Positions 15,888 to 48,695 of a stretch of 59,856 nt of DNA are shown in pieces. The notes beneath the pieces are model-generated. The model was not told the origin of the DNA and made no database searches. It saw only the letters and a program-made list of their open reading frames with translations. A program made the translations under genes and the position numbers. This DNA is from Catajapyx aquilonaris (Eukaryota), in NCBI GenBank assembly GCA_000934665.2, contig JYFJ02002291.1:1-59856 (forward strand). Direction: 5' to 3'. Position 1 is the first letter of the stretch, and each line of letters opens with the position of its first letter.

Positions 15888-18350
15888 ATGCAGTTTGTAT
15901 TTATTGCATCATTGATCATACTTCTTGCACATCGAAGTTTACAAAGTGAGCGAATTACTTATTGCTGTATAATGTTGTTGGTGCTTTTATTTCAGTAGCC
16001 ATTATTGAATCAATTATATAGAGTGAAACCTCGATCTATCGTATCCTGATATATCATTTTTACAAGATGAATGTGGAGAACATGCCATATTTTGTTTCAA
16101 TATGAATATTTGAACAGTGCATTAGATATCTTAATACTGTATAACTAAATTATTATTTTTAGCATGAGCTATATATGTGTCTACCCAGTGTTATTTGGAA
16201 CACACGAATGCACCAGAATAATGCGGCATAAATCACATATAACATATAGTCCATGGATTCAGCTTAATGTAGTGTATACCACAGGGTCGTGTATTGCACG
16301 ACAATCCTTCAGCTCAAGTCATGAATTGTTTACCACAGCAACCAATAGAGAAGCAACAATCACGACAGGTCTATAGTGCTACTGTTGTAGCTTCCATTTG
16401 TGCTGGTTGCTGGGAGAAACAATGCATACTTCTTTCCTTGAACTCGGGACATTCTCAGTACTGTACAGTACAACACCCTGTGAAATGGTTGCTAGCTGAG
16501 CAGTAAAGGCATGTTGTAAAATTGATAGCACGAAGACTATACCCACACCTGCTAAAACAACAAGGAACTGTCTGAGACGCACAATACCATTAATACGTAT
16601 ACCGTTTATGAATCTTTATTTTTAGACGAGGTCTGCGTCGTATCGGCAGAAGATGTCATGTCGTATGTAAATATGCAGGATCAATGTGACAGGTATATTG
16701 TCAAGGCGGCCTCCATCAAATGTGCCAAAGGTACCGTAATNCCCCTGGTGGGTGGGGCCCTTAGAAGGAGCCCTCCACTCCTTCCCTCTTTTTCCCCTGC
16801 CCACCCTTCACACACACTGTTGGCCTTTCCGATATACTTGTACTCCAGCCCCTTTTGGGGACAGTTGAGAATAAACACCTGTGTGATTCGAACCCACTGT
16901 GTATCATTTGAGTAGCCTGGGCGACGACGGTGCCTTAACCGTTACAATATTATTATTATGTCTTATTATATTTATTATCTTTTATTACACATAATATATA
17001 AAATAATTTATATCGTCTTCAAGTGCTGACTACATCGGAGTACAGAATAGTTGGAGGTTGTTCCCAATACATATTCGACATATCACTGAGCAACGACAGG
17101 AACATTACAGATTTACTTTATAACAAGATGTAAGTTGTGTTATGAGCAACATTATACATTTCAATGCAACCTGCCCTAATTCGGATGATTTAAACTTTCA
17201 GATTTGTAAACTGCACAAAATTGGCGGATGAACTGATGACAAAATTACAAGAGTTTGAAAAACCTTGCGGCAACGCATCTGTACTGCAAGTTGAACTGGG
17301 ATTTAAAACGGAGCTTACGGAGTCGACAGGACCAGTTTTTACTGAAAATATTACCAAGTATTATTGTTATCATACTTTAAGCCGAGATGTGATGCAGAAA
17401 TTACAATTGTTGACTAATTACAGCTGCATCGTAATAACTAGTAGAGACTCAACAAGTCAACGGAGAGTGCCCACGGAACTAGAATTACCCAGGAAGATGC
17501 ATGTGACGAATGCAACATTGGCCTGCTTAGATGATGGTAATAAAATAGCAGTGCAGATATACAGGGTGTATTATGAACCTGTTAAATTCTGCTTCTGATT
17601 TTTCTTCAGCCGAAAAAGCTGAAGATTATGGCTGGAAGTCAGGATCGTGCGTGAACTCATCCGTTACACTAATGCCAACTAATGTTGGACAAGCTTATGA
17701 CATTACAACATACATACGATACAGGTTAGTATAGAACTGTGTTATAGTGATTATGATTATGATTATGATGCATTTTGTGCAGTTGTCAAGGGATGGGATG
17801 GTGCTATTTGTACAACGACATATTCAAAGAAATATCTCGCTGCAATGAGAACACGCTGGCTATGATAAGAGTCGAATACTCGCTTGAAGAGGGACTGAAT
17901 TATTGCTTACCCAATAATTCAATATATTACGGAGAATTCCCTAATTCGTACGGATGCCTGTACCACTTGACAGATCAATTGCAGGGGACAGCGTCGAGAA
18001 AAAAGTGCATTGATCTCGGTGGAGACATTCCATATTACTACGACAAAACGGTCATACTACTTAAGAAATATTTGCCAAATGATACGGTCAGCACTTGGGT
18101 AAAAGGTTACGGGATGAGTCTCCGCTCGCCCACAAATAATCCCACACTGAACATCACCAAAAATATGGCCCTTGACTGGTCCAAATCTGACAACATCACA
18201 ATTCAACCAGACGGAACTGCAATGAGCACAATTTGCGTCCTGCCCACTTATCGCAAAGACGATTACCCGACCACAACCACAGCAACAACACCAGTCTCTA
18301 CTACTAGTAGTGTACCAACGACAACAACAACAACCAGCAAACCAGGTTAA
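15888..18350 (+). CDS. aGPCR copy A0: 3'-truncated duplicate, open frame of 406 aa (signal, 2 SUEL-like domains, CTLD, short Thr stalk); secreted lectin or young pseudogene
   Basis: Seven exons homologous to gene A, all in frame. An in-frame TAA (18348-18350) falls directly after the stalk (TTSKPG*), with no GAIN or 7TM downstream. The CTLD Trp is changed to Gly (LQGTASR vs LQWTASR). Confidence 0.6.
16741..16945 (-). mobile_element. Partial tRNA-derived SINE (second family) in intron 2 of A0
   Basis: Absent from the paralogous intron of gene A. Minus strand reads AACGGTTAAGGCA...GTGGGTTCGAATC (B box 16885-16894). Begins at an assembly N (16741). Confidence 0.65.
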
Positions 18351-19678
18351 AAGAAGTGTCCTCAAAGAGAAAACCTTGGAGTGACCTGGGGTCAGTCTTC
18401 GCCAGGAATTGTTGCAAGGCCATGAAAAAAATTACAACCTTTATTTTCATCGCCTCACACTTTTGCCCGAAAGATATTCTGTGGCTGTCAATTATTATAT
18501 TGTAGTTTTATAACCACAATTTGCATTGCATTGACGTTTATTGAAAGTTGAAGTTCCATTTGAAAATGCTAGAAAATGTAATAGTGGTAAGCCATATTGA
18601 AAATCTTTGTTATAATTATATCTGTTGTCTCACATGATGAATAAATATATTCCTTCTGCTCAGTCAATGTGGATATTGTTATTTCAATTGCATTGTTACC
18701 TGGGTATATGTGTGCTTGCAGAAACATTTATTTTATAATGCTTAAATTGATTTGTTCACATGATTTATTTATGCATATTAAGCTCTGGATATAAAAATTA
18801 AGCACCTTACAGTCTTCCACTAAGAACAATCTGCAATGTCTTTGTACCACAATTTTTATTGCATTGATCTTCATTGAAAGTAGTGATTTATTATGTGTAT
18901 CTGGAATTATATTGCGGACATAATTATGTAAGTGAAGGGACGAGGGAAAGAGAAAATTACCTTGGATTTTATATTCATATGATTAAGCCATCTAATGTAG
19001 ATGCACACAGCTGTCCAGCATGAAAGATCATGAAGATATGCTGTACAAATAAAGAAGTATAATATCCAGCAAGATGTGATATTATATGCCAATGTTTTGT
19101 GGATAATTTCTCTGGGGCGATTTGGACACAAATCGCTCAGTGGGTAAATCATATGGGTAGAATTGGGTGAGTGGACAGCGTTTGTCTCAGGGGCAAGCAA
19201 ATCTACATCGTCGTCTACGTCGTCTACTGTTGGTCCCTCCACATTTCCCCCACCTACATTTTAAACTTGGTTTGGGCCAAGGGATACGCTGAAGGCGACA
19301 TGCTGGACTATAGTAACATACACCCTATTTTCACTACCAGTACTATTAAAAATAGCAGTGATCAACATTGGGATTTTTAACAACAACAATATACCGCCAG
19401 GCCTGTGGCGGTTAACATGTTTTCTCTCAAACTGCAATATTACTATTGCAGTTCGAGTTTGGCACACTAAACATTATCTTTTGGAGTTTACCTCACAGCC
19501 GCTTCATGTAACCTTCAGGATGTTGCCTTTTGAATCGCACAGATAAGATAAGATATCGCTTCCTCCCTTTTTTTGTTTTGTCACTTATAAGATGATTCAA
19601 GAGTAATTTGCCAGTTGGCTCCCATCTGCTTGGCAGGCTCTTGGTTCAAGCGGCTTCTGGATGCAGGGATAAACAACG

Positions 19679-22600
19679 ATGCAGTTTGTATTTATTGCAT
19701 CATTGTTCATACTGCTTTCACAACGAAGTTTACAAGGTGAGCGAATTATTTATTACTGTATAATGGTGTAACATATTGTTCATGGATTCAGCTTATGTAC
19801 TGTATACCACAGGGTCGTGTATTGCCCAACAATCCTTCAGCTCATGTCATGAATTGTTTACCACAGCAACCAATAAAGAAGCAACAATCTCGATAGGTCT
19901 ATGGTGCTCCGAGTAGCTTCTATTTGTACTGGTTGCTGGGATAAACAATGCATTACGTTCCTTGAACTCGGGACTTTCTCAGTACTGTACAGTACAACAC
20001 CCTGCACCCTGTGAAATGGTTGCTAGCTGAGCAGTAAAGGCATGTTGTAAAATTGATAGCACGAAGACTATACCCACACCTGCTAAAACAACAAGGAACT
20101 GTCTGAGACGCACAATACCATTAATACGTATACCGTTTATGAATCTTTATTTTTAGACGAGGTCTGCGTCGTATCGGCAGAAGATGTCATGTCGTATGTA
20201 AATATGCAGGATCAATGTGACAGGTATATTGTCAAGGCGGCCTCCATCGAATGTGCCAAAGGTACCGTAATTATTTCATCCATATCACATTATTAGCCCA
20301 AGTATGGATTGCTAAATATTATTTATTATGTCTTATTACATTTATTATCTTTTACAACACATAATATTTAAAATAATTTATATCGTCTTCAAGTGCTGAC
20401 TACATCAAGGTACAGAATAGTTGGTGGTTGTTCCCAATACATATTCGGCATATCACTGAGCAACGACAGGAACATTACAGATTTACTCTATAATAAGATG
20501 TAAGTTGTGTTATGAACAACATTATACATTTAAATGCAACCTGCCCTAATTCGGATGATTTAAACTTTCAGATTTGTAAACTGCACAAAATTGGCGGATG
20601 AACTGATGACAAAATTACAAGAGTTTGAAAAACCTTGCGGCAACGCATCTGTATTGCAAGTTGAACTGGGATTTAAAACGGAGCTTACGGAGTCGCCAGG
20701 ACCAGTTTTTACTGCAGATATTACCAAGTATAATTTTTATCATACTTTAATCTGAAATGTGAAGCAGAAATTACAATTGTTGACTAATTACAGCTGCTGC
20801 ATCGTAATAACTAGTAGAGACTCAACAAGTCAACGGAGAGTGCCCACGGAACTAGAATTACCCAGGAAGATGCATGTGACGAATGCAACATTGGCCTGCT
20901 TAGATGATGGTAATAAAATAGCAGTGCAGATATACAGGGTGTATTATGAACCTGTTAAATTCTGCTTCTGATTTTTCTTCAGCCGAAAAAGCTGAAGATT
21001 ATGGCTGGAAGTCAGGATCGTGCGTGAACTCATCCGTTACACTAATGCCAACTAATGTTGGACAAGCTTATGACATTACACCATACATACGATACAGGTT
21101 AGTATAGAACTGTGTTATAGTGATTATGATTATGATTATGATGCATTTTGTGCAGTTGTCAAGGGATGGGATGGTGCTATTTGTACAACGACATATTCAA
21201 AGAAATATCTCGCTGCAATGAGAACACGCTGGCTATGATAAGAGTCGAATACTCGCTTGAAGAGGGACTGAATTATTGCTTACCCAATAATTCAATATAT
21301 TACGGAGAAGTCCCTAATTCGTACGGATGCCTGTACCACTTGACAGATCAATTGCAGTGGACAGCGTCGAGAAAAAAGTGCATTGATCTCGGTGGAGACA
21401 TTCCATATTACTACGACAAAACGGTCATACTACTTAAGAAATATTTGCCAAATGATACGGTCAGCACTTGGGTAAAAGGTTACGGGATGAGTCTCCGCTC
21501 GCCCACAAATAATCCCACACTGAACATCACCAAAAATATGGCCCTTGACTGGTCCAAATCTGACAACATCACAATTCAACCAGACGGAACTGCAATGAGC
21601 ACAATTTGCGTCCTGCCCACTTATCGCAAAGACGATTACCCGACCACAACCACAGCAACAACACCAGTCTCTACCACTAGTAGTGTACCAACGACAACAA
21701 CAACGACAACAACAACCAGCAAGCCAGGTAAAAAGTGTCCTCAACGAGAAATCCTTGGAGTGACCTGGGGTCAGTCTTCGCCAGGAGTTGTTGCAAGGCC
21801 ATGCCCTGGAAACGGTCAAGGAAATGCAAAATGGACATGCGGAAGTGACGGACAATGGAAAACAACATATCCGGACATGAGGTAAGCAATTTTCCATTGG
21901 ACAATGGACATACACACTTTTTTTAAAAATGCAGTTGAACAAACTAACAAAATCGCATTTGAAGTCTTGAAATCCTGAACAATCAATGGACGACAAATGG
22001 TCGTTTTTTCATAATTAAAACAAACCATATACACTTTTCCTGTCTTGTTGCAGCGAGTGCAGCTCCTTTGAGCCAGAATGGAACAATGCACTGAGTTTGT
22101 TGAATGCAAACAAACTTGCATCTCACGTGATGCTAAACTTGTCTGAAGTCATAGTGAGAAACGAGAGCAGCTTCCAAGCAGGAGACATCAACAAGGCAAT
22201 ACAAGTGCTGAACAAATCAATAAGTGTTCAACAGAAGCAGTACGAAGATTGCTTACACACAAAAGACCACGAGTAAGATTATAACCGACGAATATTACAA
22301 TAATAATACACTGTAAAAATATGTATTGTGAGCCACATTTTTCTTTACAAGACAATGCAAGGATATGGCAGAAATGTTCATGCAGTCTGCTTTGAACATA
22401 AGTGGGGCTTCTCTGGAAGAACCTTTGTCGTGGAAGACAAATCCGGAAATCAACAGGAAAGGGTCTGAATATTTTGATGTCATAGACAGGATTGGGTTTC
22501 AAGCCTTGACGTCCGTGACAATCCAGAACTATTCTATGAACAACATATGTAAAGCATTTATTTAAAATAATTATTAATACCTGAAATGCAGAAAAAATTA

Positions 22601-24555
22601 TTATTGACCATTTCTGCATTTCAAGTTTTTCAAAAATGGTTGAGTTTTATCCACATTTTGACAACATTTTCTTGTCAGATTTTTCGCCGAACATGGTGCT
22701 CGAAAAAGACGTCGATAACCAAACCTTGCGATACAATTTCCCAACCGGATCTCAAATTTACTTGCCGGATGAAGCAATTGCTCAAGGAACTGTGAATAAC
22801 ACATGGAGAGGAATTTATCTGACTTTTTACAACATGCACGAAATTCTAGGAAACAACTTGCAACTGTAAGTTTTTATAATGGCATTCAAAATTAAATATG
22901 TAAATTTGCGTAATTTGCAGAAATATTGGGGATGAGAAGAACTTGAGCAACATTGTGGTGAGCGTTCCTGTAGGAACATCGCTTGGAGAATATGCGAGGA
23001 ACATAAGTTTCAGCAACGGAACAGTGAGGTTGAGGGTCAAGCACGAGGTCAGCTTGAATAATTACAAGTTAATTAATCGACGGTGTGTGTATTGGGACAC
23101 GACAGAGGACGAATGGAGGACTGAAGGTTGCGAAACATTTTCTGTCGAAGGAGACATCACAGATTGCGAATGTAGTCATCTGACCAACATGGCAGTACTT
23201 ATGGATTACGATGGGGTCATACACAATGGGGGTCAGGTAAAATGGTCATCAGTTGTTATCCTATATGTTCACATACTTGATACATTTTTGTTTCAGTTTG
23301 AAGCGGCCATATCAGCCATCACGATAGTCGGTTGTTCCTTGTCCATCATCTGCCTGATCATTGCACTGATCATATTTTATGCAGTGAGATCACTCGGAGG
23401 TCTTCGCATGGTCATACATGTCAATCTGTGCTTCACATTGCTTGTGGCTCAGATGACCATGGTTGTTGGTCTGGACTCCACGGCTAACGAAGCAGGATGC
23501 AAAGTCGCAGCTCTTTTCATGCACTATTTCTTCCTATCCACATTCTGCTGGATGCTGATCGAAGGATTTCAGCTGTACCTCATGATCATTGTGGTATATT
23601 CAGAATGTTCAAACATTTTGGCAAAAGTTACACACAATTATGATTTTTTTTGCAGGTTTTTGACACCGTTGCTCTGAAGATGTGGCAGATATTTTTGGCA
23701 GGATATGGTTTTCCGCTTCTTATTATTGTGATATCAACATCTAGCTGCTGGAAAGGTTACGGAACAAAGCAGTAGTAAGTGTCTGAAAATGCAAGTAAAA
23801 TATTATGTGCTATGTGTGAATCAGTGTTATTTAAAAAAAATGTCTATTTCAGTTGCTGGTTAAGCCATGAAAACGGGCTGATCTGGGCATTTCTGGCTCC
23901 GGTTCTGATCGTTATTATGGTAAAGACTTCTTGACATTACATGTTTGAATTTTTGTCGATAATTTTTGTGACTTCAGATCAATTTGGGGATATTGGCGGT
24001 GACACTTCGAAAAGCCAGAAAGGCCATGCAAAGGTCTGAGGGTAGAAACATGCCAAACAAAACACCAGTGGTTTGGCTAAAAGGACTGACATCATTGGCT
24101 GTGCTTTTGGGAATCACTTGGCTCTTCGGATTTTTCCTCTTCTCACAAGGTTAGACTCTTCAATCAAAAACATTGAGAATGTTTGAAACGTATGATCCTC
24201 CTTATCTTTTCAGAACCTCCAGGAGTGGTGAAAGGACTGGAAGTGATATTTGCAATCCTGAATTCATTGCAAGGAGTGTTTATTTTCGTGTTTCATTGCA
24301 TAATGCAAGCTGATATCAGGAGGGCGTTCAAGAGGAGGATGTTGAATCAGTTCCCTTGGTTATCTGAGGTGTGTAAATACCTATATCGCAAATATAGATG
24401 ACAACAAAATCAAAAAATAATTATGAGATTCCGGGATGGGTATATTAATGAGCATTTAAGTTTATCTCTCAAAATATCTACAACTTCCATACTTTAACAC
24501 ATTTTCATTGCAGGTGACCAGTTCCATACGAGATATAACACAATCTAAAACATGA
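19679..24555 (+). CDS. Latrophilin/Cirl-like adhesion GPCR A (17 coding exons): SUEL-like x2, CTLD, Thr stalk, HRM, GAIN/GPS, 7TM, short tail
   Basis: Signal exon 19679-19736 MQFVFIASLFILLSQRSLQ; DITPYIRYSCQGMGWC...IRVEYSL (SUEL-like); WTASRKKCIDLGGDIP (CTLD); CPQREILGVTWGQSSPG...CP...AKWTC...W...PDMSEC (HRM); CVYWD...WRTEGC...CECSHLTNMAVLM (GPS); LFMHYFFLSTFCWMLIEG, LLGITWLFG and NSLQGVFIFVFHC (secretin-type 7TM). All exons splice in frame to TGA 24553-24555. Confidence 0.93.
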
Positions 24556-25200: not shown

Positions 25201-25313
25201 ACTTAGTAGGTCTTAATTTTGTAATTGGCTTGTAAGACTAGGATGTCAAACATGTGTGGACTCTTTCAGTAGTAGAATGGGGAATTACTGAAAAGAGACG
25301 AACATGCTGTGAA

Positions 25314-28300
25314 ATGCATTTCTTCAGTTTGGGAATAATTCTTGCACTTACAGTCCATTTCTGTGAAGGAGGTAAGTGAATATTTGTAGCCATATGTAGG
25401 AAAATATTGACCACTTTTAAGAGCGATTTAAGATAATAATTAGAGTTGCAGTCAATTTTCTGAAATTTTTTGTTTTCTTTTTAGAATGGACGTGTTTTAC
25501 CACAAATTCAACGACGATTGCGTCTCAGCACATTAACAATGCCATCAAAACACTCGACTCAATTATGAAGGTTAATGCCAAATGTATCTCAGGTTGTACA
25601 TTTTGCTTCATTTTATACCATGTGTTTCATAATTATTTAATAATTACACGTATCTGTCTGCAAAAAAAATCTGAAAATATGCGAATGTCAATCTGACGCC
25701 GAGACATTTTCAGATATGTACGCGCGCAAAATAATATTATGAAACACACATATTTAAAACATTATTGTAAGGATATCCTTAATGGACGATTTACGATTGT
25801 GAATGGAATTATGCAATAATAATTCATCGCACATTGCTTAAAATTGTCTCATCATAATTCCACACAAGACGTTTCTTGTTTCAAGTTGTTCCTACCTATA
25901 AAACCAATTAGGCTAAATTTTAATAGAATAATATTAAGATGTTAATGATATGTTTTCTAAAGGCCCTATCATATCAGTTGAGGAGTGTGAAACAGAGGCC
26001 ACGAAGCACATAGAAGAATATGCCATTGATTTGACGGATCTGATTAAGAGAGGGTCAGCCTATACGCTTATTATTATGTCCTTATCATTACCTGATAATG
26101 AACTGATTTGGTTTGTTTTAGATGCCAAAATATTTCCCAATGTGCCTCAACAATTAACGACAGAATCATGAATCGAGGAAACTGTAGTCCACTACACAGC
26201 ATCATGATTATGATCAACTATGGGCTACACATGGGCTACACATTTGGAGTTGACATAGGCACATGTTACACGTTTGGCCCTAGTTCAGGCACGACAATAC
26301 CGCCAAATAATAGGTTTCCTATAATTCACAAGAAGAGTCCTGATGGTCATACATCGAATGATCAACTGTTCATTGCAAATGCGACACTGGCCTGCTTCAA
26401 CGGTTCTGGTCAGTATTTAATGCACTCCTTGTACTTCCCATTGCCTTTTTAAAACCAGGACATACCTACTGTACAACCAAACAATAATATTTTTCATTAT
26501 GATTATTGCGCAGAAGCTTCAGTAGAAAGATTCGGATGGATAGTGGATATCTGCACAGAAGACAGTCACAGATTCCCTCCAGACGTAGGAATTACACGTC
26601 AGGCTACAACTTACATGCGGTACAGGTAAGGATTAGTTTTCTTTTCAGAGTATGTCACAACAATCATACTCCATATTAAAATTTTAATGGTTCCTGTTGA
26701 TAACTAACAATATTTGGGCATGATAACATTAAGTTAGTTCCAAGCGTTTGTGAAAATAGTATGTTTGTGTGTGACTATGAGCCTATATAATTATACAAAT
26801 ATTACAGATGCCAAGGACGCACCGAATGCGAAGTGCATCTCGACTCATTAGTGCTTGACATAAACGACACCAATTGTCTATCGTCGTCGCCGTTTACAAC
26901 AAGAATGCTCCGAGTGGAATACCAACTGTTGCAAGACATAACACTTTGCCAGAATGTCGGTGCCAAGCTGATTTATAATGTCGACAATTTCTTTTGCTTG
27001 CTGTACGTCGAAGACAAACAACAATGGAGAGATGCAAGAAACCAATGCAGGGCATTAGGAGGAGATCTTCCATACTCTGCATGGGACACTCATGATGACT
27101 TTTTGTCCTATGGAAAGCATCAGGGGCTTGTATGGGCGAAAGGAAATTCTTCTGTAGATATACGAACTCCAACTCAAGGCGATGCTATTATAATGCCTAA
27201 TGAAGCAATCTGGTGGGTTGGAGGAACTTGCTTCCCAATCATCACGGACAAGATCATTACTTCATTTTGCGTCCTGCCTCCCTACCCACATGACTGGGAG
27301 CCAACAACACTATTCCCATCAACAACATCAACCAGCATAACACTAACGACTCCTTCCACACCCACACCCTCCTACAGTTATCCAACAACAACACTTATGT
27401 CAACAACTCATTCACTAGCCTCAACTACGACTTCACATAAAACGTCAACTAAATTATCAACGTCACCAACGTCAACATCATATAAATCACCAACAACATC
27501 AACACCAACTACGGAACCAACAACAACGAAGTCGATTCAGATATCATCAACAACTTCAGCAACATCTACTTATCACCCAACACAATCACCACCAGTGAAA
27601 TCGACAACACGTGCAACTCAGCCAACAACGAGAGGGTCAACCACTTCCACAGCACCAGGCACAACAGTCCCACCCAAAAGCATGTGCAGTGCTGAAACCA
27701 TTCAAGGAGTGACCTGGGGACCGTCCAGTCCAGGGGTGGTCACCAAGAAATGCCCCGACTCTGACGACCAAGCAACTTGGACGTGTGGTGAAGACTATCA
27801 ATGGACCACTCCTTATCCAGACATGAGGTATATAATTAAGGTGTCGGTATATGCCACATATGCGTATGTGGTGCGACAAGTGGCATTTTCCTATCACTCC
27901 TCTTTCCACAGCAACTGCAGTGCTTTTGGACCAGAGTGGGACAAGGCGTCCAAAATGCTCGATGGGAACACATCTGCTTCCCAGGTCATGCTAGATCTAG
28001 CCACCAACATTATGGGCAAGGAATCTGACTTTCAAGCGGGGGATATCAACAACGCCATTGAATTAGTGAATAAGTCAGTAGGAATTCAAGGAGTTCAGCA
28101 CCAGCAGTGTGTGGATCAAGGAAAAGGGTAATTCCACAATATTGGTGACATAATTTTTTAAATATATTTAGTAATTTAAAAAAAGGGAAGAGTGCGAAAG
28201 AGAAGCGACGTTGTATACTGAGGCCACACTGAACGTCACCGGAGCATCTCTGTCCACACCCATGGCATGGAAGACGAATCCGGATAATTACAAGATAGCC

Positions 28301-30604
28301 TCTCAATTCTTCAGTACGGTTGATATCGTCGGAATCAAGGCTACAGAGTGGATCACCCCACAGAATCTTTCTTTGGAAAATATATGTAAGGAACACATTA
28401 AATAGTATCAGTCATTGTGGAGGTTATTAAAGGGTCACTATGTTATGCTGTTAATGGCATCTTTTCATTCATTAGATTTTACTCCAGAGGTTCACACACC
28501 TGGAGAAATGAAAATGAGTGACCTGGAATATGAGTTTCCATCAGGATCAAGCATCAGTCTGCCTCAATGTGCACTCAATGTAACTGGTGTCAACGACATG
28601 TGGAGGGCAACATTTTTCACCTTCTACAAGATGCATCAAATCCTAGGAAACAACATGCTTTTGTGAGTCTCAATTTTTGCCCAGTCAATAAATATTGCAT
28701 GTCTTATCCATCATTTTTAAAATACAGAAACCAGAGTGCGGAAGAAGGCAAAAACTTGAGCGGAATAGTAGTAAGCATACCGGTGGGGACTTTACTAGGC
28801 AGCCATGAAAGTGTCAAATTTGCTCATGGAAAGGCTGTAATTGAGTTAAGGCACGTGTACAGACCCAGAGAGCACAACCTGAGCAATCCCAGATGCGTCT
28901 TTTGGGACACGGATCACAGCACATGGAGCGAGGTAGGCTGTTCGCTCACATCACATCGCGAAGAGTACAGCAGGTGTGAATGCAGCCATCTAACCAACAT
29001 GGCAGTGTTGATGGACTACACTGGTGCTATACACAGAGGAGGAGAGGTCGGTTTTACACTGCTTTGAAAATGAATGAAATAGTCCCACTTAACCTCCTGA
29101 AATCTGTAGGCCTACACATAATTTGTTAATGTCAATTTAAACGAGTGTAACACTTTTCAGTTCGAGTCAGCCATAACCATAATCACGACAGTCGGCTGCA
29201 GCATTTCCATAGCGTGCTTGATCACGGCTCTGATCATCTTCTGGGTGGTTGGATTGGGATCGAACCTGCGAGTCACTATTCACGCCCATCTCTGCCTGTC
29301 ACTACTGGTGGCTCAGGTGACAATGGTGTTCGGACTAGACGCCACTGGAAGCAGGGCAGGATGCAAAGCTGTTGCGATACTGTTGCACTACTTCTTTCTG
29401 ACCGCCTTCTTCTGGATGTTGCTGGAAGGATATCAGCTCTACAATATGATAATTAGGGTATAAGTCATTTTGCTGTGAAGTGTGATTTGCAATGTCATGA
29501 TCAAATCACCATTCCATGTAGTAATTGCGAAGTCAAAAAAATTCATCGAAACCAGTAGGCCCTAATGATAATATTTTCTCTGAATAATTTCAAAACATTA
29601 TGTGCCATTATTGAGCACTTGGAACACACTGTTGCAGGTATTTGACACAATGGGTCTGCGAAAGTGGAAGATTTACCTGACAGGTTATGGCCTGCCACTT
29701 GCTATAGTGTCGATATCAGTAGCTGTACGTTGGGATGGTTATGGCACAAGTGAATAGTAAGTGATCATTATTGGAACAAACAATTTATAACTTCATACGT
29801 ATGTATAACATGCATATATTCTTGCAGTTGCTGGCTAACCAGAAAGGATGGGCTGATTTGGGCATTTTTGGGTCCTGTAGCCGCAATAATTTTGGTGAGT
29901 TTCCTTTCAGTTAACATGTCTCAGTTAAGGCAGTAAATGTTTTCTTGCAGACGAATATTGTTATCTTGGTGGTTACTTTACGGACTGCCCATAAGGCGAT
30001 GCAGAAGAAGGAGGGTCGAGCCATGGCCACTAGGTCGTCCCTGGTCTACTTGAAGGGCTGCGTGTCGCTTATGATACTCTTGGGAGTCACTTGGGTGCTC
30101 GGCCTGTTCCTATTCGCAAATGGTAACCTCACAAAATGGTGCACTGATTGTTTTTGACAATGTGGTACAACATGATCAATTTTTTTAAAGAACCGACTGG
30201 TGTCATTCAAACGCTGGAAGTGGTTTTTGCAGTGTTAAATTCACTTCAGGGAGCCTTCATATTTATCTTCCATTGCATTTACCAAGGGGACGTCCGAAGA
30301 ACATTGCGAAGGAAAATTGACAGGAAGTTCAAATGGCTGTCTCAGGTAAATTCCAATTTTAGCACGATACATGTAAAGAAGACTGCTGATGAGTGACATT
30401 GAACTAGTGGCAATAATGACACATGCTCTCAGTTAATGATATTACAATATTATTAGCACTGTAGTGCCAGACAAATGGCTTGCAATTCATGATAAAATTA
30501 ATTCTGTCGCATTACAGGTTACTACCACATTCAACGGAAGCCAAACGACCAGCAGCACAAGCCGGAAAAACACGCTCCCCACAGTGGTTCAGAATAGTAT
30601 TTGA
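25314..30604 (+). CDS. Adhesion GPCR B (SUEL-like x2, CTLD, ~128-aa Ser/Thr stalk, HRM, GAIN/GPS, 7TM)
   Basis: Signal exon MHFFSLGIILALTVHFCEG (25314-25371); TTYMRYRCQGRTEC...MLRVEYQL; WRDARNQCRALGGDLP; CVFWD...CECSHLTNMAVLM; HYFFLTAFFWMLLEG; NSLQGAFIFIFHC. Last exon 30518-30604 ends VVQNSI*. Confidence 0.93.
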
Positions 30605-35313: not shown

Positions 35314-35314
<1 letters not shown>

Positions 35315-35544: not shown

Positions 35545-38500
35545 ATGCGCTTCTTCAGTCTCGGAGTAATTTTTGCAGTTACAGTACCCTTCTGTGCAGG
35601 CGGTAAGTGAAATTTTCATAGCTATATGTGCAGATAAATATTGCTCACTTTCGAGAGTTTTTAAAAACTACGGTAGTTGCAATGCCGTTTATATATTTTT
35701 TCTGTTTCTTATTAGAATGGGTGTGTTTTACCACAAATTCAACGACGATTGCATCTCAGAAGATTAGCGATGCCATCGAAATACTAGAATCAGTTATTAA
35801 AGTCAATGCCAAATGTATTTCAGGTTGTACATTTTGCTTCATTTTATTCAGTGTGTTTCGCATCAGTATCTGCAAAATAGTCAAGTAGTGTTAGACATAC
35901 TCTATTAAACTATAATTATTTTGAATAAGATACAAGTTATTAATGATATGTTTTTCTAAAGGCCTTAGCACCGCTGTGGAGGAGTGTGAAACGGAGACCA
36001 TAAATCCCATAGAAGAATATGCCATTGATTTGACGGATCTGATTAAGAGCGGGTCAGACAATGCTTTGCAGATAAACTTTGATATGTCCTTATAGTACTA
36101 CCTGATAATGAACTGATTTGGTTTGTTTTAGGTGCCCAAATATTTCCCAATGTGCCTCAGCAATGAACGACAGAATCATGAATCGAGGAAACTGTGGTCC
36201 ACAAGACATCATAATGTTTATGATCAACTACGGGTCTTCCGTCAAAGAGGAAGGTTTTGTCAGCACAACTGGAGTTGAATCAAACATACCATGTTACACG
36301 TTTGGCGCTGGTACAGACATGACATTACCGCCGATGAGTCCTAATATTACATCGTATGATCAACTGTTCATTGCAAATGCGACACTGGCATGCTTCAATG
36401 GCTCCGGTCTGTATTGATGTTCTTGTACTTCCCAGTAATATTTTTAAAAACCATTACTGTACGATCGGATATTATATTTTTCATTCTGCCTGTTGTGTAC
36501 AATCTTCAGTAAGAAGCTACGGATGGGTAGTGGAGTTCTGCATGGCAGACAGCCACCGTCTGCCGCCAGACGTAGGATATACACGTCAGGTTACAACTTA
36601 CATGCGGTACAGGTAAGTTAATTAGTTTTACTTTCAAAGTGTGTCTGTGACAATTAGCCTATGCAAATTGCAGGTGTCAAGGGCGAAACGAATGCGAAGT
36701 GGATCCCTTCATATTGGCGTCTGATATAAATGACACCAACTGTCTAGAGGAGTGGTCCCCGTTCAAAAATAGAATGCTCAGAGTAAAGTACCAACTAGTG
36801 CAAAACTTAACACTCTGCCCTAATGAAAGTAGGCCTACCAAGCTGATTCCTAATGTCAATAATTCGTTTTGCTTGCTGTTTGTTGAGGACGAACAACAAT
36901 GGTCAGAAGCAAGAAATTACTGCAGGTCATTAGGAGGGGATCTTCCATACTATGCATGGGACACTTATGGTGACTTTTTGTCCTATGGAAAGCATGAGGG
37001 GCTTGTATGGGCGAAAGGAAATTATTCTGTAGATATACGAACTCCAACTCAAGGCGATGATATTATAATGACTAATGAAGCAATCTTGTGGGGTGGAAAA
37101 ACTTGCGTCGCAATCATGACGGACAAGAACATGAGTTCATTTTGCGTCCTGCCTCCCTACCCACCTGACTGGGAGCCAACAACACTATTCCCATCAACAA
37201 CATCAACCAGCTTAACACCAACGACTCCTTCCACACCCACACCCTCCTCCAGTTATCCAACAACAACACTTATGCCAACAACTCATTCACTAGCCTCAAC
37301 TACGAGTTCACATAAAACGTCAGCTAAATTATCAACCCCACCAACGTCAACATCATATAAATCACCAACAACATCAACATCAACTACGGAATCACCAACA
37401 CTACAATCTACTCAGATATCAACAACAAAAACAGCATCAACATCTACGGAACCAACAACAATAAAGTCGACTCAGATTTCATCATCAACAACATCATCAA
37501 CTACAGAACCAACAACGCAATCAACTCAGATATCAACAACAAAAACAGCATCAACATCTACGGAACCAACGACAATAAAGTCGACTCAGATTTCATCATC
37601 ATCAACATCATCAACTACAGAACCAACAACGCAATCAACTCAGATTTCAACAACAACAACAACACCATATACAGAACCAACAACGAAGTCGACTCAGATA
37701 TTATCAACATCTTCAGCAACATCTACTTATCACACAACACAATCACCGCCAGTGAAATCGACAACACGTACAACTCAGCCAACAACGAGAGGGTCAACCA
37801 CTTCCACAGCACCAGGCACAACAGTCCCACCCAAAAACATGTGCAGTGCTGAAACCATTCAAGGAGTGACCTGGGGACCCTCCAGTCCAGGGGTGGTCAC
37901 CAAGAAATGCCCTGACTCTGACGACCAAGCTACTTGGACGTGTGGTGAAGACTATCAATGGACCACTCCTTATCCAGACATGAGGTATGGTAAGCCTCAT
38001 GTGGTGCGACAAGTGGCATTTTCCTATCACTCCTTCTCTTTCCACAGCAACTGCAGTGCTTTTGGACCAGAGTGGGACAAGGCGTCCAAAATGCTCGAAG
38101 GGAACACATCTGCTTCTCAGGTCATGCTAGATCTTGCCACCAACATTATGGGCAAGGCATCTGACTTTCAAGCGGGGGATATCAACAACGCCATTGAATT
38201 AGTGAACAAGTCAGTAGGAATTCAAGAAGTTCAGCACCAGAAGTGTGTGGATCAAGGAAAAGGGTAATGCCACAATATTGGTGACATAAGTTTTTTAAAT
38301 TAATTTAGTAACTTAAAAAAGGGAAGAGTGCGAAAGAGAAGCGACGTTGTATACTGAGGCCACACTGAACGTCACCGGAGCATCTCTGTCCACACCCATG
38401 GCATGGAAGACGAATCCTGATAATTACAAGAAGGCCTCTCAATTCTTCAGTACTGTTGATATCATTGGAATCAAGGCTACAGAGTGGATCACCCCACAGA

Positions 38501-40917
38501 ATCTCTCTTTGGAAAATATATGTAAGGAACGCATTAAATAGTATCAGTCATTGTGCAAGTCATGAAAGTGTCATTATGATAAAACCCAGAAAAATTCTCC
38601 TGTTTTTATGCATGAAAGCCCAAATATCAATTCTTTATGTGTCAACACAATGAAGTTATTTCTTCAACCACAATGGGTCATAAATATTGTTTACAATGCG
38701 GTCAAGTTTACCAAGATTTCCAGGCTCATACATGTCAACTTTTCATTCATTAGATTTTACTCCAGAGGTTCACACACCTGAAGAAATGAAAATGAGTGAC
38801 CTGGAATATGAATTCCCATCAGGATCAAGCATCAGTCTGCCTCAATGTGCACTCAATGTAACTGGTGTCAACGACATGTGGAGGGCAACATTTTTCACCT
38901 TCTACAAGATGCATCAAATCCTAGGAAACAACATGCTCTTGTGAGTCTCAATTTTTCCCCAGTCAATAAATTTATTGTAGGTCTGATCCATCATTAAATT
39001 TTTCAATACAGAAACCAGAGTGCGGGAGAAGGCAAAAACTTGAGCGGAATAGTAGTAAGCATACCGGTGGGGACATTACTAGGCAGCCATGAAAGTGTTA
39101 AATTTCCTCACGGAAAAGCTCTAATTGAGTTAAGGCACGTGTACAGACCCAGAGAGCACAACCTGAGCAATCCCAGATGCGTCTTTTGGGACACGGATCA
39201 CAGCACATGGAGCGCGGTAGGCTGTTCGCTCACATCACATCGCGAAGAGTACAGCAGGTGTGAATGCAGCCATCTAACCAACATGGCAGTGTTGATGGAC
39301 TACACTGGTGCTATACACAGAGGAGGAGAGGTCGGTTTTACACTGCTTTAAAAATGGATCAAATAGTCCCACTTAACCTCCTGAAATCTGTACACATAAT
39401 TTGTTAATGTCAATTTAAACGAGTGTAACTACTTTTCAGTTCGAGTCAGCCATAACCATAATCACGACAGTCGGCTGCAGCATTTCCATAGCGTGCTTGA
39501 TCACGGCTCTGATCATCTTCTGGGTGGTTGGATTGGGATCGAACCTGCGAGTCACTATTCACGCCCATCTCTGCCTGTCACTACTGGTGGCTCAGGTGAC
39601 AATGGTGTTCGGACTAGACGCCACTGGAAGCAGGGCAGGATGCAAAGCTGTTGCGATACTGTTGCACTACTTCTTTCTGACCGCCTTCTTCTGGATGTTG
39701 CTGGAAGGATATCAGCTCTACAATATGATAATTAGGGTATAAGTCATTTTGCTGTGAAGTGTGATTTGCAATGCCATGATCAAATCACCATTCCATGTAG
39801 TAATTGCAAAGTCAAAAAAACTCATCAAAACCAATTATTATAATATTGTGCCCCATTGAAGTTTCTCACTGAATAATTTCAAAACATTCTGTGCAATTAT
39901 TGAGCTCTTGGAACAAACTCTTGCAGGTATTTGACACAATGGGTCTGCGAAAGTGGAAGATTTACCTGACAGGTTATGGCCTGCCACTTGCTATAGTGTC
40001 GATATCAGTAGCTGTACGTTGGGATGGTTATGGCACAAGTGAATAGTAAGTAATAATTATCGGAACAAACAATTTATAACGTCTTACCTACGTATAACAT
40101 GTGCATGCATTCTTGCAGTTGCTGGCTAACCAGAGAGGATGGGCTGATTTGGGCATTTTTGGGTCCTGTAGCCGCAATAATTTTGGTGAGTTTCCTTTCA
40201 ATTAACATGTCTCAGTTAAAGCAGTGAAATGTTTTCTTGCAGACGAATATTGTTATCTTGGTGGTTACTTTGCGGACTGCCCATAAGGCGATGCAGAAGA
40301 GGGAGGGTCGAGCCATGGCCACTAGGTCGTCCCTGGTCTACTTGAAGGGCTGCGTGTCGCTTATGATACTCTTGGGAGTCACTTGGGTGCTCGGCCTGTT
40401 CCTATTCGCAAATGGTAACCTCACAAAATGGTGCACTGATTGTTTTTGACAATGTGGTACAACATGATCAATTTTTTTTAAAGAACCGACTGGTGTCATT
40501 CAAACGCTGGAAGTGGTTTTTGCAGTGTTAAATTCACTTCAGGGAGCCTTCATATTTATCTTCCATTGCATTTATCAAGGAGATGTCCGAAGAACATTGC
40601 GAAGGAAAATTGACAGGAAGTTCAAATGGCTGTCTCAGGTAAACTCCACTTTTAGCACAATACATGTAAAGAAGCGTATGAATGCAGTAATTGTAACATT
40701 AAAATATTAGCAATAATCATGCTCTCTGTCATGTACTGACATTCCTAAATTATTAGCCCTATAACGCCTTCCATTGTGAATAATTCTTGATGAAATAATT
40801 AATGTCTTGATGAACTATGTCGCATTACAGGTTACTACCACATTCAACGGAAGCCAAACGACTAGCAGCACAACCCGGAAAAACACTCTTCCCACAGTGG
40901 TTCAGAATAGTATTTGA
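35545..40917 (+). CDS. Adhesion GPCR D (as B, with expanded ~220-aa mucin stalk)
   Basis: Signal exon MRFFSLGVIFAVTVPFCAG and the same exon series as B. ORF 39497-39742 is identical in protein to 29218-29463. GPS SHLTNMAVLM; TGA at 40915-40917. Confidence 0.93.
37404..37700 (+). repeat. Coding 114-bp tandem repeat (38-aa Thr/Ser unit) in the stalk of aGPCR D
   Basis: Unit QSTQISTTKTASTSTEPTTIKSTQISSSTTSSTTEPTT starts at 37404 and 37518, with a partial unit at 37632. Confidence 0.9.
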
Positions 40918-44560: not shown

Positions 44561-44730
44561 ATCCGAACAAAATGACTTTGATGGCCGTTTTCCCCCCGAT
44601 TCAAAGCAGTTATCGAGAGATGACTTTTGAGATTGGCTCTTTCAAGTGTGCCGACAGCATGTTACGGCAGGGTGGGGCCAAATGCTTTTTGCGACAGTCT
44701 GGCTCACAGATGGGCTCATAGCGAGACGGA

Positions 44731-47700
44731 ATGGACGCATTGTATATTGTACTGGTTACTCTCAGTACTCTTTCGGTGTATCCCAGCGATGTTGGTAAGC
44801 AATCGCAACATTTATTACAAATCAGAGCAATAAATTTTGTCAATAATTTTATTTCACCAAATTCAAAGTAAGAGAACAAAGTGCTCTAGCTCTGACTTGG
44901 ACATAATTTTCACTAAAACTAGAACAACAACCATTATTAGGAGTATGTACAGTACATGTTGTCATCTAGGCAATAAGACGAATGTGACAGCACCACCAGA
45001 ATCAAGGAAACAACAGCCACAGACATCCCCGTCAAAAGCTACAAGTCATCCACCTACTTCAACCACATTTCACTCGTCACTAACCACACCAACGACGACA
45101 ACGACAACGGCATCGGCGACAACATCGACTAGACCGACATCTGAAACGACAACGACGGTGACGACAGAAACAACTCCAGCACACATGAACATGTGTCGAT
45201 CATCTGAAATAATCCAAGGCTTGAACTGGGGGCCGGTCGCCCCGGGTCGGACCCAAATACAGAAATGTCCATCAGATTGCGAAGGACAGGCGATGTGGAC
45301 ATGTGGACAGGACGGACATTGGTTGACCCCGTATCCGGATATGAGGTATTGTAAAAGGGAAACACATGCTCATGTCCACATTATGATTGTCGTGATTGTC
45401 TTTGCAATTTTCAGCAATTGCAGCGCATTCGAGTCGGACTGGACACAAGCAGTGACTCAGCTGAATGGAAGTGATTCTGCTTATCAAGTTATGACCAGTC
45501 TGGCGGCCAGGATCATGAAGAAGGAGTCCAGGTTTCAAGCGGGTGACGTCAAACATGCAATCCAAGTCTTGAGCATGTCGTTAAAAATGCAAAAATCGCA
45601 ATATCGACAATGCATGTCGTACAGAAATCCGTAAGTCGCTAACGGTACATTTTTATGCAGAAGTGTCACCATTTTGATGGCCAAGTCTACAAACATTACA
45701 AGCCACTAATAATATTGGGTGGAATTTTCGTCCCACTACTAGCTACTGCTAACAGGCTGTTAGCAGTAGCTAGCAGTGGGACGAAAATTTAACCATTATT
45801 AATAAAAAAGTGATCAAAGTCATCAATCAAAAATATTATGTGAAGTCAGACATTCCGACCAAAAATGTACTAGATCATTCATTATTATTTACCCAAGATT
45901 ATCCTCAATCCATATTCTTTATAACTTATAATTATGTCTTCCCATATCAGCAAACAGACTTTATCTGCAAAGTGTAATCAGATCTGGTATTGCCAACGTC
46001 CGGTTCCATTAGCAAGTACTTGAACTGGAGAGTACTCCAATATGCTCATAAATTCAGTAGATATAAAACTTAGATTAAAACGTGATGTCAACTTTAAATA
46101 GAACTGACTGTAAAATTAAACTACAAGTAGATTACGTATAAACATCAAAAAACTAGTGCAGAAATTGTATATAGTGTGGCACAGATTTTGATTGAAATGC
46201 TGCTTTGCTAAAATGTGAACTGTAATATTTATTTATTTATTTATTTATGTTACCCCTTACGAGGCCATAGCCCTTTTGGGGGGGGGGGAATGTGAACTGT
46301 AATACTCGTGTTATACTTTGATATCGGTTTACTTATTTGAAGGAAAAAGTGCGAAGAGGAATCACGGACGTACACTGAAGCATCTCTGAACATGAGTGGA
46401 GCGTCTCTGGGTGCAACAATGGCTTGGCTGACCAACTCTGAGATGAATCAGATGGCTTCGGATTTCTTTTTGATCCTGGAACATGTAGGATTTCAAGCTA
46501 CAGAGGCAGCAGTCACGCAGAGAAATTACTACACGGACAATATTTGTGAGCCAATTATTTGCATGCTTTCAATGAAAGGACATGAAGAAATATTTGTCTC
46601 ATACATAGCAATGAGCTATATGAAATGCGACTTTTTAAAATACAATAATACGAGTCAAGTATTGTTATCATCTGTTACAGATTTTACACCAAAGTCCTGC
46701 GCTGTTGGCAACGTCACCAGAAATAATCTTCAGTATTCATTTCTATCCGGATCGATCATTATTCTGCCCGAGTCCAGTGTTAAAGATGGATCCGTCAACG
46801 ACACTTGGACTGCGACTTTCTTCACTTTCTATAAAATGCACTACATTTTAGGAAGCAACATGCAAATGTAAATTCACGTGTTTTAAAATTAATTGCCATT
46901 TGGAGGGGGGTAAAAAGCGAAAAAGCGACAGTGTGTACGATATACGGTTATTGGAACAAACGTTTCACCATAATGATGCATAATGTTCTAGTGTATTCAT
47001 GATCATTATTTTGGCAGGAATGACTACATGAATATGGGACAGAATCTGAGCGGCATTGTTGTCAGTGTCCCGATAGGAACTTCGTTGGGTCTTCCAGGAA
47101 GAAGTGTCCGATTCAGCAGCGGTAAAGCCAGATTGGTCCTGAAGCACGTGTACAGTCCGACCAAGTTAAATCTGACCGGTCCAAGATGCATGTTTTGGGA
47201 TGTTGACCAGAGCTTGTGGAGCGACCATGGCTGCTATTTGGTTTCGTGGGGAGAAGACAGCAGCATGTGTGAATGCAACCACTTGACAAACATGGCCGTA
47301 CTGATGGACTACGCCGGTGTCATCCATCACAACAGCAGACAAGTTAGTAGAAAATGAGTAACATATAATATTGGTTGGTAATTCCAACAGTGCATGCTGC
47401 GCGAACTGTGGTGCGCACTCGGTTGCGCTCGTTTAAAAAAAAATCTCGTTTTCATATGTTTAAATACATTTTGTGGCTATTTTCAGTTCGAATCGGCAGT
47501 GACTGTGATCACCAATATCGGCAGCTGCATTTCCATAGTTTGTCTGATAGTGGCCGAAGCCATATTCGCGGTGGTGAGATCATCCGGAAATATGAGGATC
47601 ACTATCCACATTCACCTGTGCGCAACTATCCTGATCTCTCAGGCCATATTTTTGGCAGGATTTGACGCCACGGACAATCCAGCAATTTGCAAATCTGTGG

Positions 47701-48695
47701 CTATATCTCTTCACTATTTCTTTTTGTCCTCGTTTTGTTGGATGCTGATCGAGGGTTACCAACTCTATGTCGTGATTATCAAGGTGAATAATAAAATCCG
47801 TATAGAGATCATAACTCTCTTTAAAATGTATACCGATTATCATTTAGGTGTTCGACACGACTGGGTTTAAAAAGCGGCTGTTTTATTTAACCGGATATGG
47901 AATACCGCTTGTAATTGTTGGACTATCTGCAACAATACGATGGGACGGATATGCCACGCCTGAATAGTAAACAATTTTGCATTAAAATTTGTGGCTTAAA
48001 TCTTAATTATTATTATGTTACAGCTGCTGGTTAAGCTACAGCGACGGATTGATATGGGCTTTTCTTGGCCCCGTAGCTGCTATTCTCCTGGTGAGTTTTA
48101 CATCAAAATATTTTTTTAAAAAAAGGCCATTCACATTAATTCTGAAATGACAATTGTTGCAGGTGAACTTGACAATAATGGTGGTGACCTTGCAGACAGC
48201 TGGTAGGGCAATGAGACGAATGGAAGGCAGAGCGATGGCCATGAGATCTCCCATAGTCATGTTAAAAGGATGCATGTCCCTCATGGTGATTTTGGGAGTC
48301 ACATGGCTCTTTGGGATCCTCCTATTTGCGTTTGGTGATATTAATATTCAATACATGCATGTCACAAGTGATGGATAATAATTAATTATTGTCGAATTAT
48401 ACTTTGCAGTGTGGTCGGATGTTGTTACACGAGTGTTGGAAGTTGCTTTTGCAATCATGAATTCACTTCAGGGAGCTTTTATATTCATATTCCATTGTGT
48501 GTGCCAGAGAGATGTGCGGAACACATTCAAAAGGAAGGTTGAAAAGAAACTGCAATTGAAGACTCAGGTATAGCTGGCTACTGAGCTTAAAAGTTAGTGT
48601 GAAGTTTTTCAAGTTTTTAATAATCGCAGGTGTCAATCACTCTCACCAGAACTCAAACTAGAAGAAACGATGCGGATATTGTGAGGTCAACTTAA
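44731..48695 (+). CDS. Adhesion GPCR E: lectin-less (signal, ~75-aa Thr stalk, HRM, GAIN/GPS, 7TM)
   Basis: Putative signal exon 44731-44794 (MDALYIVLVTLSTLSVYPSDV, phase 1) splices to 44970 (GNKTNVTAPP...). HRM CRSSEIIQGLNWGP...PYPDMSNC; GPS CMFWD...CECNHLTNMAVLM; HYFFLSSFCWMLIEG. All downstream exons are in frame to TAA 48693-48695. The 5' exon is less certain than the rest. Confidence 0.88.
45714..45798. mobile_element. MITE-like family 1, copy 2 (intronic)
   Basis: Palindrome AATTTTCGTCCCACTACTAGCTACTGCTAACAG-G-CTGTTAGCAGTAGCTAGCAGTGGGACGAAAATT. Confidence 0.75.
46228..46288 (-). mobile_element. Severely 5'-truncated non-LTR retroelement 3' end with (TAAA)n tail and 16-bp TSD
   Basis: Direct repeats AATGTGAACTGTAATA at 46212-46227 and 46289-46304 flank (TTTA)n plus ~40 bp of unique sequence. 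Confidence 0.8.

Follow-up and report, generated by a model that had tools for sequence, protein, structure and literature searches.

Does a row of lectin-headed receptor genes on one contig of Catajapyx aquilonaris form a diversifying recognition system, or is it the ordinary expansion of a gene family? The row lies in the 59,856 nucleotides analyzed here (the window; contig JYFJ02002291.1 of assembly GCA_000934665.2, positions 1 to 59,856 of the forward strand) and consists of six related units, A0, A, B, C, D, and E, resembling latrophilin-like adhesion G-protein-coupled receptors (GPCRs). An earlier note, made from the sequence alone, proposed a recognition system. The six units are probably divergent latrophilin-like adhesion GPCR genes that multiplied in tandem within one lineage, their history including repeated whole and partial duplications, deletion, and gene conversion; of these, B, D, and E look intact, a nonsense codon interrupts A, and A0 and C are truncated. 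Such an array amounts to the ordinary growth of a gene family within a lineage and does not demonstrate a new immune system.

Organization of the Array

The sequence is eukaryotic in character, with short coding pieces separated by GT-AG introns of ~55-390 bp, and holds two single N's in the window, at 16741 and 43697. Exon models were built manually from the frames of open reading frames (ORFs), simple splice-site scores, and junction conservation among the paralogs, and the + strand from 15.5 to 49 kb was compared with Pfam as 89 stop-to-stop ORF pieces (threshold E<=0.01). The SUEL-like domain (three exons) and the GAIN domain (four exons) were compared with Pfam exon by exon only, the whole segments being aligned by script. 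The units and their parts are as follows (aa, amino acids; TM, transmembrane helix; TRF, Tandem Repeats Finder).

15888-48695, + strand: adhesion-receptor array of six paralogous units in the order A0, A, B, C, D, E
15888..18350, + strand: A0, a 5′ partial duplicate of A; six predicted exons, 408 aa
15888-15945, 16285-16368, 16626-16692, 17202-17536, 17610-17724, 17783-18350, + strand: predicted exons of A0
16741..16946, no strand assigned: insertion in A0 intron 3; an N and ~205 bp absent from A, where the A0/A alignment breaks
19679..24552, + strand: A; 16 predicted exons, 1052 codons, full architecture
25314..30601, + strand: B; 16 exons, 1161 aa, open frame
31083..33792, + strand: C; eight exons, 568 aa
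33888..34513, + strand: C remnant with the TM5-TM7 exons, downstream of a deletion and, in the model, with no in-frame join to the upstream part
35545..40917, + strand: D; 16 exons, ~1246 aa, open frame, architecture as in B
37362..37706, + strand: tandem repeat in the stalk of D; 114 bp, 3.1 copies, in frame; TRF score 488, 87% matches
44731..48695, + strand: E; 12 predicted exons, ~750 aa, open

The array limits are the ATG of A0 (15888) and the stop of the predicted last exon of E (48695), and the array is flanked by an ionotropic glutamate receptor-like (IR-like) gene on one side and a C-type lectin gene on the other. Pfam and self-BLASTN agree with the earlier description of six related units on the same strand. 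Using self-BLASTN, A0 (15640-18424) and A (19411-21803) are 87-97% identical, B and D are 75-76% identical in the 5′ part and up to 92% in the 3′ part, and B and C are 79-84% identical; beyond the match of A to A0, A and E give no alignment to other copies at E 1e-20. A short-intron, in-frame reading of the exon 4-5 junction in B, C, and D was rejected, only C keeping the frame, and this junction was modeled with a downstream acceptor conserved in all three.

Only B and D are open, head-bearing, and full-length, whereas the earlier note had counted three such receptors, including A. B runs from a signal peptide through a Cys-rich N-terminus, a SUEL-like domain, a C-type lectin-like domain, a mucin stalk of 141 aa, HRM, and GAIN/GPS to a seven-transmembrane (7TM) domain and a short tail (Pfam GPS, 7.6e-13; 7tm_2, 1.8e-24). 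In D (GPS, 8.6e-13; 7tm_2, 1.5e-24), the mucin stalk measures 235 aa, the 114-bp repeat lengthening this Ser/Thr/Pro-rich segment, and the last exon (40831-40917) was positioned by homology to the RNA-supported last exon of B. A perfect (AAT)21 microsatellite is found at 35250-35313, ~230 bp upstream of the start codon of D. The frame of A is interrupted in exon 4 by a TGA (20753-20755), located in the linker that leads from the Cys-rich N-terminus to the SUEL-like domain; the TGA sits among ~10 differences from A0, which is open at that site. The remainder of A is predicted to encode the complete receptor (HRM, 8.7e-5; GPS, 2.5e-12, with CECSHLT-NMAVLMD; 7tm_2, 2.4e-27).

The frames of A0 and C are open, as the earlier note stated of these truncated copies, but only to premature ends at 18350 (SKPG-stop) and 33792 (NNCSR-stop). 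A0 comprises a signal peptide, a Cys-rich N-terminus, SUEL-like and C-type lectin-like domains, and a short mucin run; its last exon shifts frame within a run of Thr codons, and the model ends in this mucin exon without HRM, GAIN, or 7TM. Its product would be 94% identical to the head of A, and the two copies are 97% identical over 1.5 kb. C contains the head, a mucin run of 44 aa, an HRM that has lost 6 aa by deletion and has Phe in place of one Cys, and the beginning of GAIN. An internal deletion of ~1.4 kb, with the stop at 33792 on its edge, takes out GAIN-B, GPS, and TM1-4, C 33777-33869 corresponding to B 28288-29772 by self-BLASTN; the remnant beyond it is 88% identical to the 3′ part of B and still matches 7tm_2 (2.5e-4 on 34010-34276).

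E is, on its predicted model, the same receptor as B and D minus the head. A predicted signal-peptide exon (44731-44794) is joined to 44970, and a mucin run follows directly after the signal peptide, giving a stalk of 112 aa before HRM, GAIN/GPS (CECNHLT-NMAVLMD), and 7TM (HRM, 3.3e-4; GPS, 1.2e-11; 7tm_2, 5.9e-25). Without its last exon the model has 730 aa and ends at 48573; the predicted last exon ends at 48695. The lectin-less receptor of the earlier note is upheld in that the model is open and no head exons were found upstream of E or elsewhere when the heads of A0, B, C, and D served as TBLASTN queries (best E 0.08 outside 15.8-40.8 kb). D and E are separated by 3.8 kb (40918-44730), which hold several ORFs of 70-167 aa on both strands without a Pfam match, a 28-bp repeat at 43736-43809, and the N at 43697.

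Signaling Module and Relatives

The architecture of A, B, D, and E is that of an adhesion GPCR (class B2), as read from the predicted proteins. Pfam matched GPS in four of the 89 ORF pieces, a single piece per receptor in A, B, D, and E (E 7.6e-13 to 1.2e-11), and 7tm_2 in 10 (A, B, the C remnant, D, and E); the 7tm_2 E-values given above for the four receptors are those of the TM1-3 exons, and later TM exons match as well. The four receptors share the cleavage motif and tethered agonist CEC(S/N)HLT NMAVLMD, cleavage being predicted from sequence. All 21 best Protein Data Bank (PDB) matches of the TM1-3 exon are adhesion GPCRs, the nearest being ADGRD1 (9e-20), ADGRL3 (1.8e-17), and ADGRE5 (3.7e-17), with ADGRL2 also near. 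GAIN, which extends over four exons, gives no single-exon Pfam match; it is recognized indirectly, from the alignment of the spliced models across the domain that Pfam assigns as GAIN in P0026, a database protein of 2365 aa whose gene model seems to fuse two tandem receptors. HRM is weak and stays below its cut-off of 26.2 bits in all four receptors (A, 23.3; E, 21.4; D and B, 16.2-16.5); its position and Cys pattern are shared with relatives that carry PF02793. The domain check suggested in the earlier note is therefore positive for GPS and 7tm_2 in A, B, D, and E, while HRM is weak and no lectin match is significant. Among the 89 ORF pieces, Pfam matched neither an olfactomedin domain nor a latrophilin-type tail.

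The segment from HRM to 7TM aligns with both units of P0026 over ~650 residues (domain E 1e-74 to 1e-85, 52-protein file). A search from P0026 retrieved 306 proteins at E<=1e-20, most of those listed being named latrophilin Cirl or ADGRL1-3, and P0026 and the named relatives carry Pfam GAIN, HRM, and SUEL domains. Each unit of P0026 has the order C-type lectin/EGF, SUEL, C-type lectin, mucin, HRM, GAIN, 7TM, and the local order from SUEL to 7TM is shared with the window genes. P0026 differs in having an additional N-terminal C-type lectin-like domain with an EGF-like domain, a second C-type lectin domain, and long Ser-rich tails. Because P0026 holds two units in a row, tandem copies are likely to occur in its organism too.

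A quick IQ-TREE tree was built from 45 HRM-to-TM7 segments, rooted at the midpoint with no outgroup; P0003, meant to serve as outgroup, fell below the domain threshold and was left out. In this tree, the four receptors A, B, D, and E group together as a single clade (SH-aLRT 100) with the topology (A,(E,(B,D))) and a support of 83 for E with B and D, in keeping with the lineage-specific expansion claimed in the earlier note. If the topology holds, the head-less E is derived from a head-bearing ancestor. A stem of 2.39 carries the clade, which neighbors Owenia and P0026 and falls outside the groups of named Cirl and ADGRL proteins; P0026 is among the nearest rows, tied with vertebrate ADGRL2 (Lemmus) at a tree path of 4.57-4.80. 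The C-type lectin-bearing reference receptors are found in three separate places. One of them, P0148 (“latrophilin-like protein LAT-2” of Asterias amurensis), has Lectin_C, two SUEL_Lectin stretches, HRM, GAIN, GPS, and 7tm_2 in Pfam, a domain set equal to that of A, B, and D; the bivalve “ADGRL3/L4-like” proteins P0136 and P0153 have Lectin_C, GAIN, GPS, and 7tm_2. In P0148, however, Lectin_C precedes SUEL, whereas the SUEL-like domain precedes the C-type lectin-like domain in the window. Furthermore, the lectin domains of these three proteins pass Pfam cut-offs whereas those of the window fail, and the three place elsewhere in the quick tree, not with the window clade. Alignment of the heads with P0148 by hhalign reached a probability of 0.78 over only 27 columns and is uninformative.

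Cirl and ADGRL1-3 combine a SUEL/rhamnose-binding lectin (RBL) domain, HRM in part, GAIN/GPS, and 7tm_2; the window genes, in which SUEL and HRM are weak, add a C-type lectin-like domain and a mucin stalk and have no olfactomedin domain and no long cytoplasmic tail. In the passages available from one paper (PMC6422961), Cirl is the sole latrophilin homolog of Drosophila, and invertebrate latrophilins are generally without an olfactomedin domain and have modular N-termini. Adhesion GPCRs with Lectin C-type domains are reported from amphioxus (PMC2246102), and co-localized, octopus-specific adhesion GPCR expansions with signs of positive selection from octopus (PMC6408891). These expansions concern different subfamilies with different heads (leucine-rich repeats in octopus), and the passages on them do not describe head-less or truncated copies within one array. 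A published array like that of the window was not found in searches of open-access text. The system was called possibly undescribed in the earlier note, a description that does not fit the receptors themselves: proteins with SUEL, Lectin_C, HRM, GAIN, and 7tm_2 are already annotated (P0148), and amphioxus offers a precedent (PMC2246102). The domain set is known already from latrophilin or LAT-2-like annotation, and C-type lectin adhesion GPCRs and tandem adhesion GPCR expansions are known from publications.

The Lectin-Like Heads

What the heads are is less readily read than the signaling module, since neither Lectin_C nor SUEL_Lectin matched any of the 89 ORF pieces at E<=0.01. At E<=10, Lectin_C appears at 0.013 (C), 0.031 (B), and 0.047 (D), and A gives no Lectin_C match at that threshold. 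A profile built from five paralogs over the initial 175 residues of the large head exon was searched against 1.84 billion representatives and gave 49 matches at E<=1e-3 (best 8e-17), most of which align at profile positions ~50-113; Lectin_C was present in all 15 matches checked and above the gathering score in 14. The same profile matches P0026 across its SUEL/C-type lectin boundary (E 1.2e-5, whole library). Against PDB sequences it is weak (best E 0.0031), 24 of the 25 matches being C-type lectin-fold proteins and spanning only the N-terminal half of the domain. An AlphaFold2 (AF2) model from the five paralogs alone was unusable (pLDDT 33.2); with 23 database C-type lectin proteins added to the alignment, pLDDT rose to 59.7 and the model showed a beta-alpha-alpha-beta...beta-beta-beta core. 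The matches listed by Foldseek for this model are all C-type lectin-like, led by CD94/NKG2A and carbohydrate-recognition domain 4 (CRD4) of the mannose receptor (TM-score 0.5-0.6 on the target). In the 28-row alignment, W76, C83, G87, L90, W112, G115, and C157 are near-invariant. The sequence signature (WxxA...C...GG.L, a WIGL-like motif, and a closing Cys) and the modeled fold are supportive of a C-type lectin-like domain in the head. The lectin heads of the earlier note are consequently retained as C-type lectin-like, by profile search and fold match, but without a significant Pfam lectin match.

The evidence for a SUEL/rhamnose-lectin domain is weak. The SUEL domain of P0026, which Pfam recognizes, scores 10.9 bits with a SUEL2-only profile, and Smith-Waterman alignment against 500 shuffles gives Z 6.3 (B), 5.0 (D), and 2.7 (A0). 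A putative first SUEL-like copy in exons 3-4 was rejected as unsupported (Z -1.0 to 2.9, no profile match). Apart from this, the intron that follows ATLACLDD in A (20909-20983) and A0 (17536-17610) would, if read through, encode GNKIAVQIYRVYYEP, which by eye is like the strand and YG motif of the P0026 SUEL domain (GTKLQIDFAAYGHYP); the likeness of GNKIAVQIYRVYYEP may be chance or the relic of an older exon boundary.

Long-loop EPN or QPD and WND are the canonical sugar and Ca2+ motifs of C-type lectins, and the adhesion GPCR BAI1 is a pattern-recognition receptor. The earlier note imagined a diversifying pattern-recognition or gut/chemosensory system in which variable glycan-sensing heads share one signaling module and which includes possible decoys, here taken to be secreted products of A0 and C. 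We consider such a system unlikely, and glycan sensing is not supported, the known sugar-binding residues of both lectin types being absent. No EPN/QPD or WND motif occurs in the ~45-aa segment from the WIGL-like strand to the closing Cys of A0, A, B, C, and D; in the alignment, this short segment replaces the long loop, where many true C-type lectins have EPN- or QPD-like motifs and WND. In all copies of the SUEL-like domain, Phe or Leu replaces Glu after the first Cys (C-F, C-L), Trp replaces the Arg of YGR (FGW, YGW), and Arg or Ala replaces the Lys of KYL (RMLRV, AMIRV). These are the residues that sugar binding by RBL requires, E42D/Q and K120R abolishing it, and receptor-attached RBL domains are argued to bind non-sugar ligands in the passages available from this study (Vakonakis, 2008; PMC2430599).

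Transcription and Reality of the Copies

Reads were placed on 15001-35000, D and E lying outside that stretch, and were taken from four DNA runs of one sample and from a small run, X5, which has the same species label and whose kind is unspecified. Contigs of X5 hold six GT..AG joints that the DNA runs are without, and X5 was therefore read as RNA. Four of the joints fall exactly at previously predicted junctions (23593/23656 and 24149/24214 in A; 29046/29161 and 30122/30191 in B), and the two new ones (24368/24514 in A; 30345/30518 in B) each add a short last exon, placing the RNA-supported stops ~35-50 aa past TM7. At least A and B are transcribed and spliced, because spliced X5 contigs map there, and expression of a single copy, which the earlier note had named as a possible refutation, is not what was found; of the three refutations that the note listed, none holds outright. 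No X5 cover was found on A0, the 5′ half of A, or C.

The head of A, interrupted by its TGA, could be bypassed if A0 and A were one transcription unit, with exons 1-5 of A0 spliced over 3.4 kb to exon 6 of A, an arrangement we regard as possible but doubtful. The fusion would skip the defective head exons of A and give a third intact head-bearing receptor, an outcome to be held just as tentatively. A0 is open where exon 4 of A is not, the donor at 17724 (exon 5 of A0) fits the acceptor at 21156 (exon 6 of A) in phase, with flanks as in normal junctions, and the 3′ half of A is transcribed and spliced. By contrast, A0 has an exon-6 acceptor of its own (17783) just 58 bp past the donor, with a score equal to that of A, and no read joining 17724 to 21156 was seen in X5, which is without cover on A0.

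The identity of A0 and A, together with the single N and the non-homologous sequence inside A0, might suggest that copies are uncollapsed haplotypes or some other assembly artifact. This explanation, which the earlier note itself had raised, is scarcely credible in view of the divergence and of word depth. B, C, D, A, and E are too different for alleles, with mutual amino acid identities of 43-88% and, for A and E, the lack of BLASTN alignment given above. In three DNA runs, contig word depth is 20.1/36.7/30 for the flank, 20.8/43.7/24.2 for the C piece, 23.5/41/27.9 for the A0-specific piece, and 21.1/42/29.5 for unique A, and 36.2/68.3/49.5, about double these single-copy pieces, for the piece shared by A0 and A. 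Since the specific pieces have full single-copy depth and the shared piece about twice that depth, A0 and A are two real copies and not half-depth haplotypes. The N in A0 sits in a high-depth repeat: word depth at the intron-3 insertion is 142-288 against ~20-40 elsewhere, with many loose ends at 16742-16949, and 16741-16946 is a dispersed repeat inserted in, or mis-resolved within, this intron.

Divergence among the Copies

That heads are more variable than the signaling module, as stated in the earlier note, is borne out by two comparisons. Identity between A and B/C/D rises from 27-30% in the head through 45-46% from HRM to GPS to 56-63% from the Stachel to TM7; between B and D, the corresponding values are 70%, 96%, and 99%. 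Stalk lengths vary as well, from 39-45 aa (A0, A, and C) to 112 (E), 141 (B), and 235 (D). Heads far more divergent than 7TM and stalks of 39-235 aa are what a diversifying recognition system would have, and A0 and C have kept signal peptides and open head frames, as decoys would.

The B-D contrast, however, is also present at synonymous sites and in introns, which weakens the word “diversifying”. Synonymous divergence (dS) declines from 0.27-0.39 (head) through 0.12 (C-type lectin-like domain) to 0.08-0.10 (GAIN/7TM), and the ratio of nonsynonymous to synonymous divergence (omega) in these three parts is 0.5-0.6, 1.22, and 0.2-0.4, respectively. Introns 1-5 are 63-84% identical and introns 6-13 are 74-97% identical, six of the latter eight lying at 87-97%. 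Furthermore, B is closer to C in its 5′ half and closer to D in its 3′ half. As synonymous sites and introns show the same gradient as the proteins, the contrast between head and tail in B and D owes as much to gene conversion or a mosaic past as to selection; a body under purifying selection joined to a head under diversifying selection is not its sole cause. The shared module of B and D appears to have arisen largely from recent gene conversion or mosaic duplication. The A0-A pair (dS 0.027, omega 0.8) looks near-neutral, and C is short of one HRM cysteine, both of which speak against a diversifying recognition system with decoys. Most likely, birth-and-death evolution has left A0, C, and perhaps A behind as decaying by-products.

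The same mosaic could be taken as a recombining repertoire for non-self or surface recognition, in which unequal crossover and gene conversion re-pair a near-identical body with divergent heads and stalks and A0 and C are head-only soluble competitors; we rate this as quite improbable.

Several points weigh against the reading of the array as an ordinary, lineage-specific cluster of latrophilin-like receptors. The omega of 1.22 in the C-type lectin-like domain of B and D, which a diversifying recognition system would predict, leaves room for positive selection on the head. RNA support is limited to A and B, D and E lying beyond the 15001-35000 examined, and the DNA runs come from a single sample, possibly the one that was assembled, and so bear on copy depth but not on the sequence. 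Pfam SUEL_Lectin has no match at E<=10 in the four exon-4 pieces, the domain being split over three exons, and the fold-model alignment was seeded with true C-type lectins, so that the structural match is not independent and is of moderate confidence. Finally, a quick tree with a midpoint root and a 2.39 stem carries a warning of long-branch attraction.

Neighboring Genes

The following genes lie beside the array.

13123-15379, - strand: IR-like gene; three ORF pieces; Lig_chan-Glu_bd 2.3e-13, Lig_chan 7.9e-4
51513-52368, + strand: C-type lectin gene; two Pfam-positive Lectin_C stretches, 3.9e-13 and 2e-10
52630-54540, - strand: IR-like gene; single intron-less ORF of 637 aa; Lig_chan 1.5e-5, below gathering score

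Of the neighbors named in the earlier note, the IR and C-type lectin genes are recognized by Pfam, and their presence is a further feature that a recognition or chemosensory locus might be expected to have, whereas the crustin-like pattern was not found: a regular expression for the WAP four-disulfide core, run on six frames of the whole window, gave no match, intron-split motifs escaping such an expression. The heads of B, C, and D match the WxEA..C..GG.L motif of the neighboring lectin weakly (TBLASTN E 0.1-0.8). Further along, a fatty-acid elongase exon (ELO/GNS1 family, E 1.4e-6) lies at 55936-56160 on the + strand, and a direct repeat of ~160 bp with 81% identity is found near the window end, at 55754-55910 and 58944-59096.

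Proposed Mechanism and Implications

By analogy with adhesion GPCRs, the head would bind something presented by another surface. Given the absence of the sugar-binding residues and the literature on receptor-attached RBL domains, a protein partner is likelier than a sugar. The glycosylated stalk would keep the head away from the membrane and carry force; a pull on the N-terminal fragment, or its shedding, would expose the tethered agonist TNMAVLMD, which would in turn switch on G-protein signaling. The paralogs probably differ in partner and in reach, since they differ mainly in head sequence and stalk length.

For annotation, the array yields two intact genes with a head, one gene without a head, and three copies that are damaged. 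If only birth-and-death evolution is at work, the locus is a further example of invertebrate adhesion GPCRs swapping and losing N-terminal modules. It would matter more if the heads bind defined partners and the mosaic of old heads and recently homogenized bodies recurs in related species. Under both conditions, the array would be a compact natural experiment on joining ligand-binding modules anew to a tethered-agonist signaling core.

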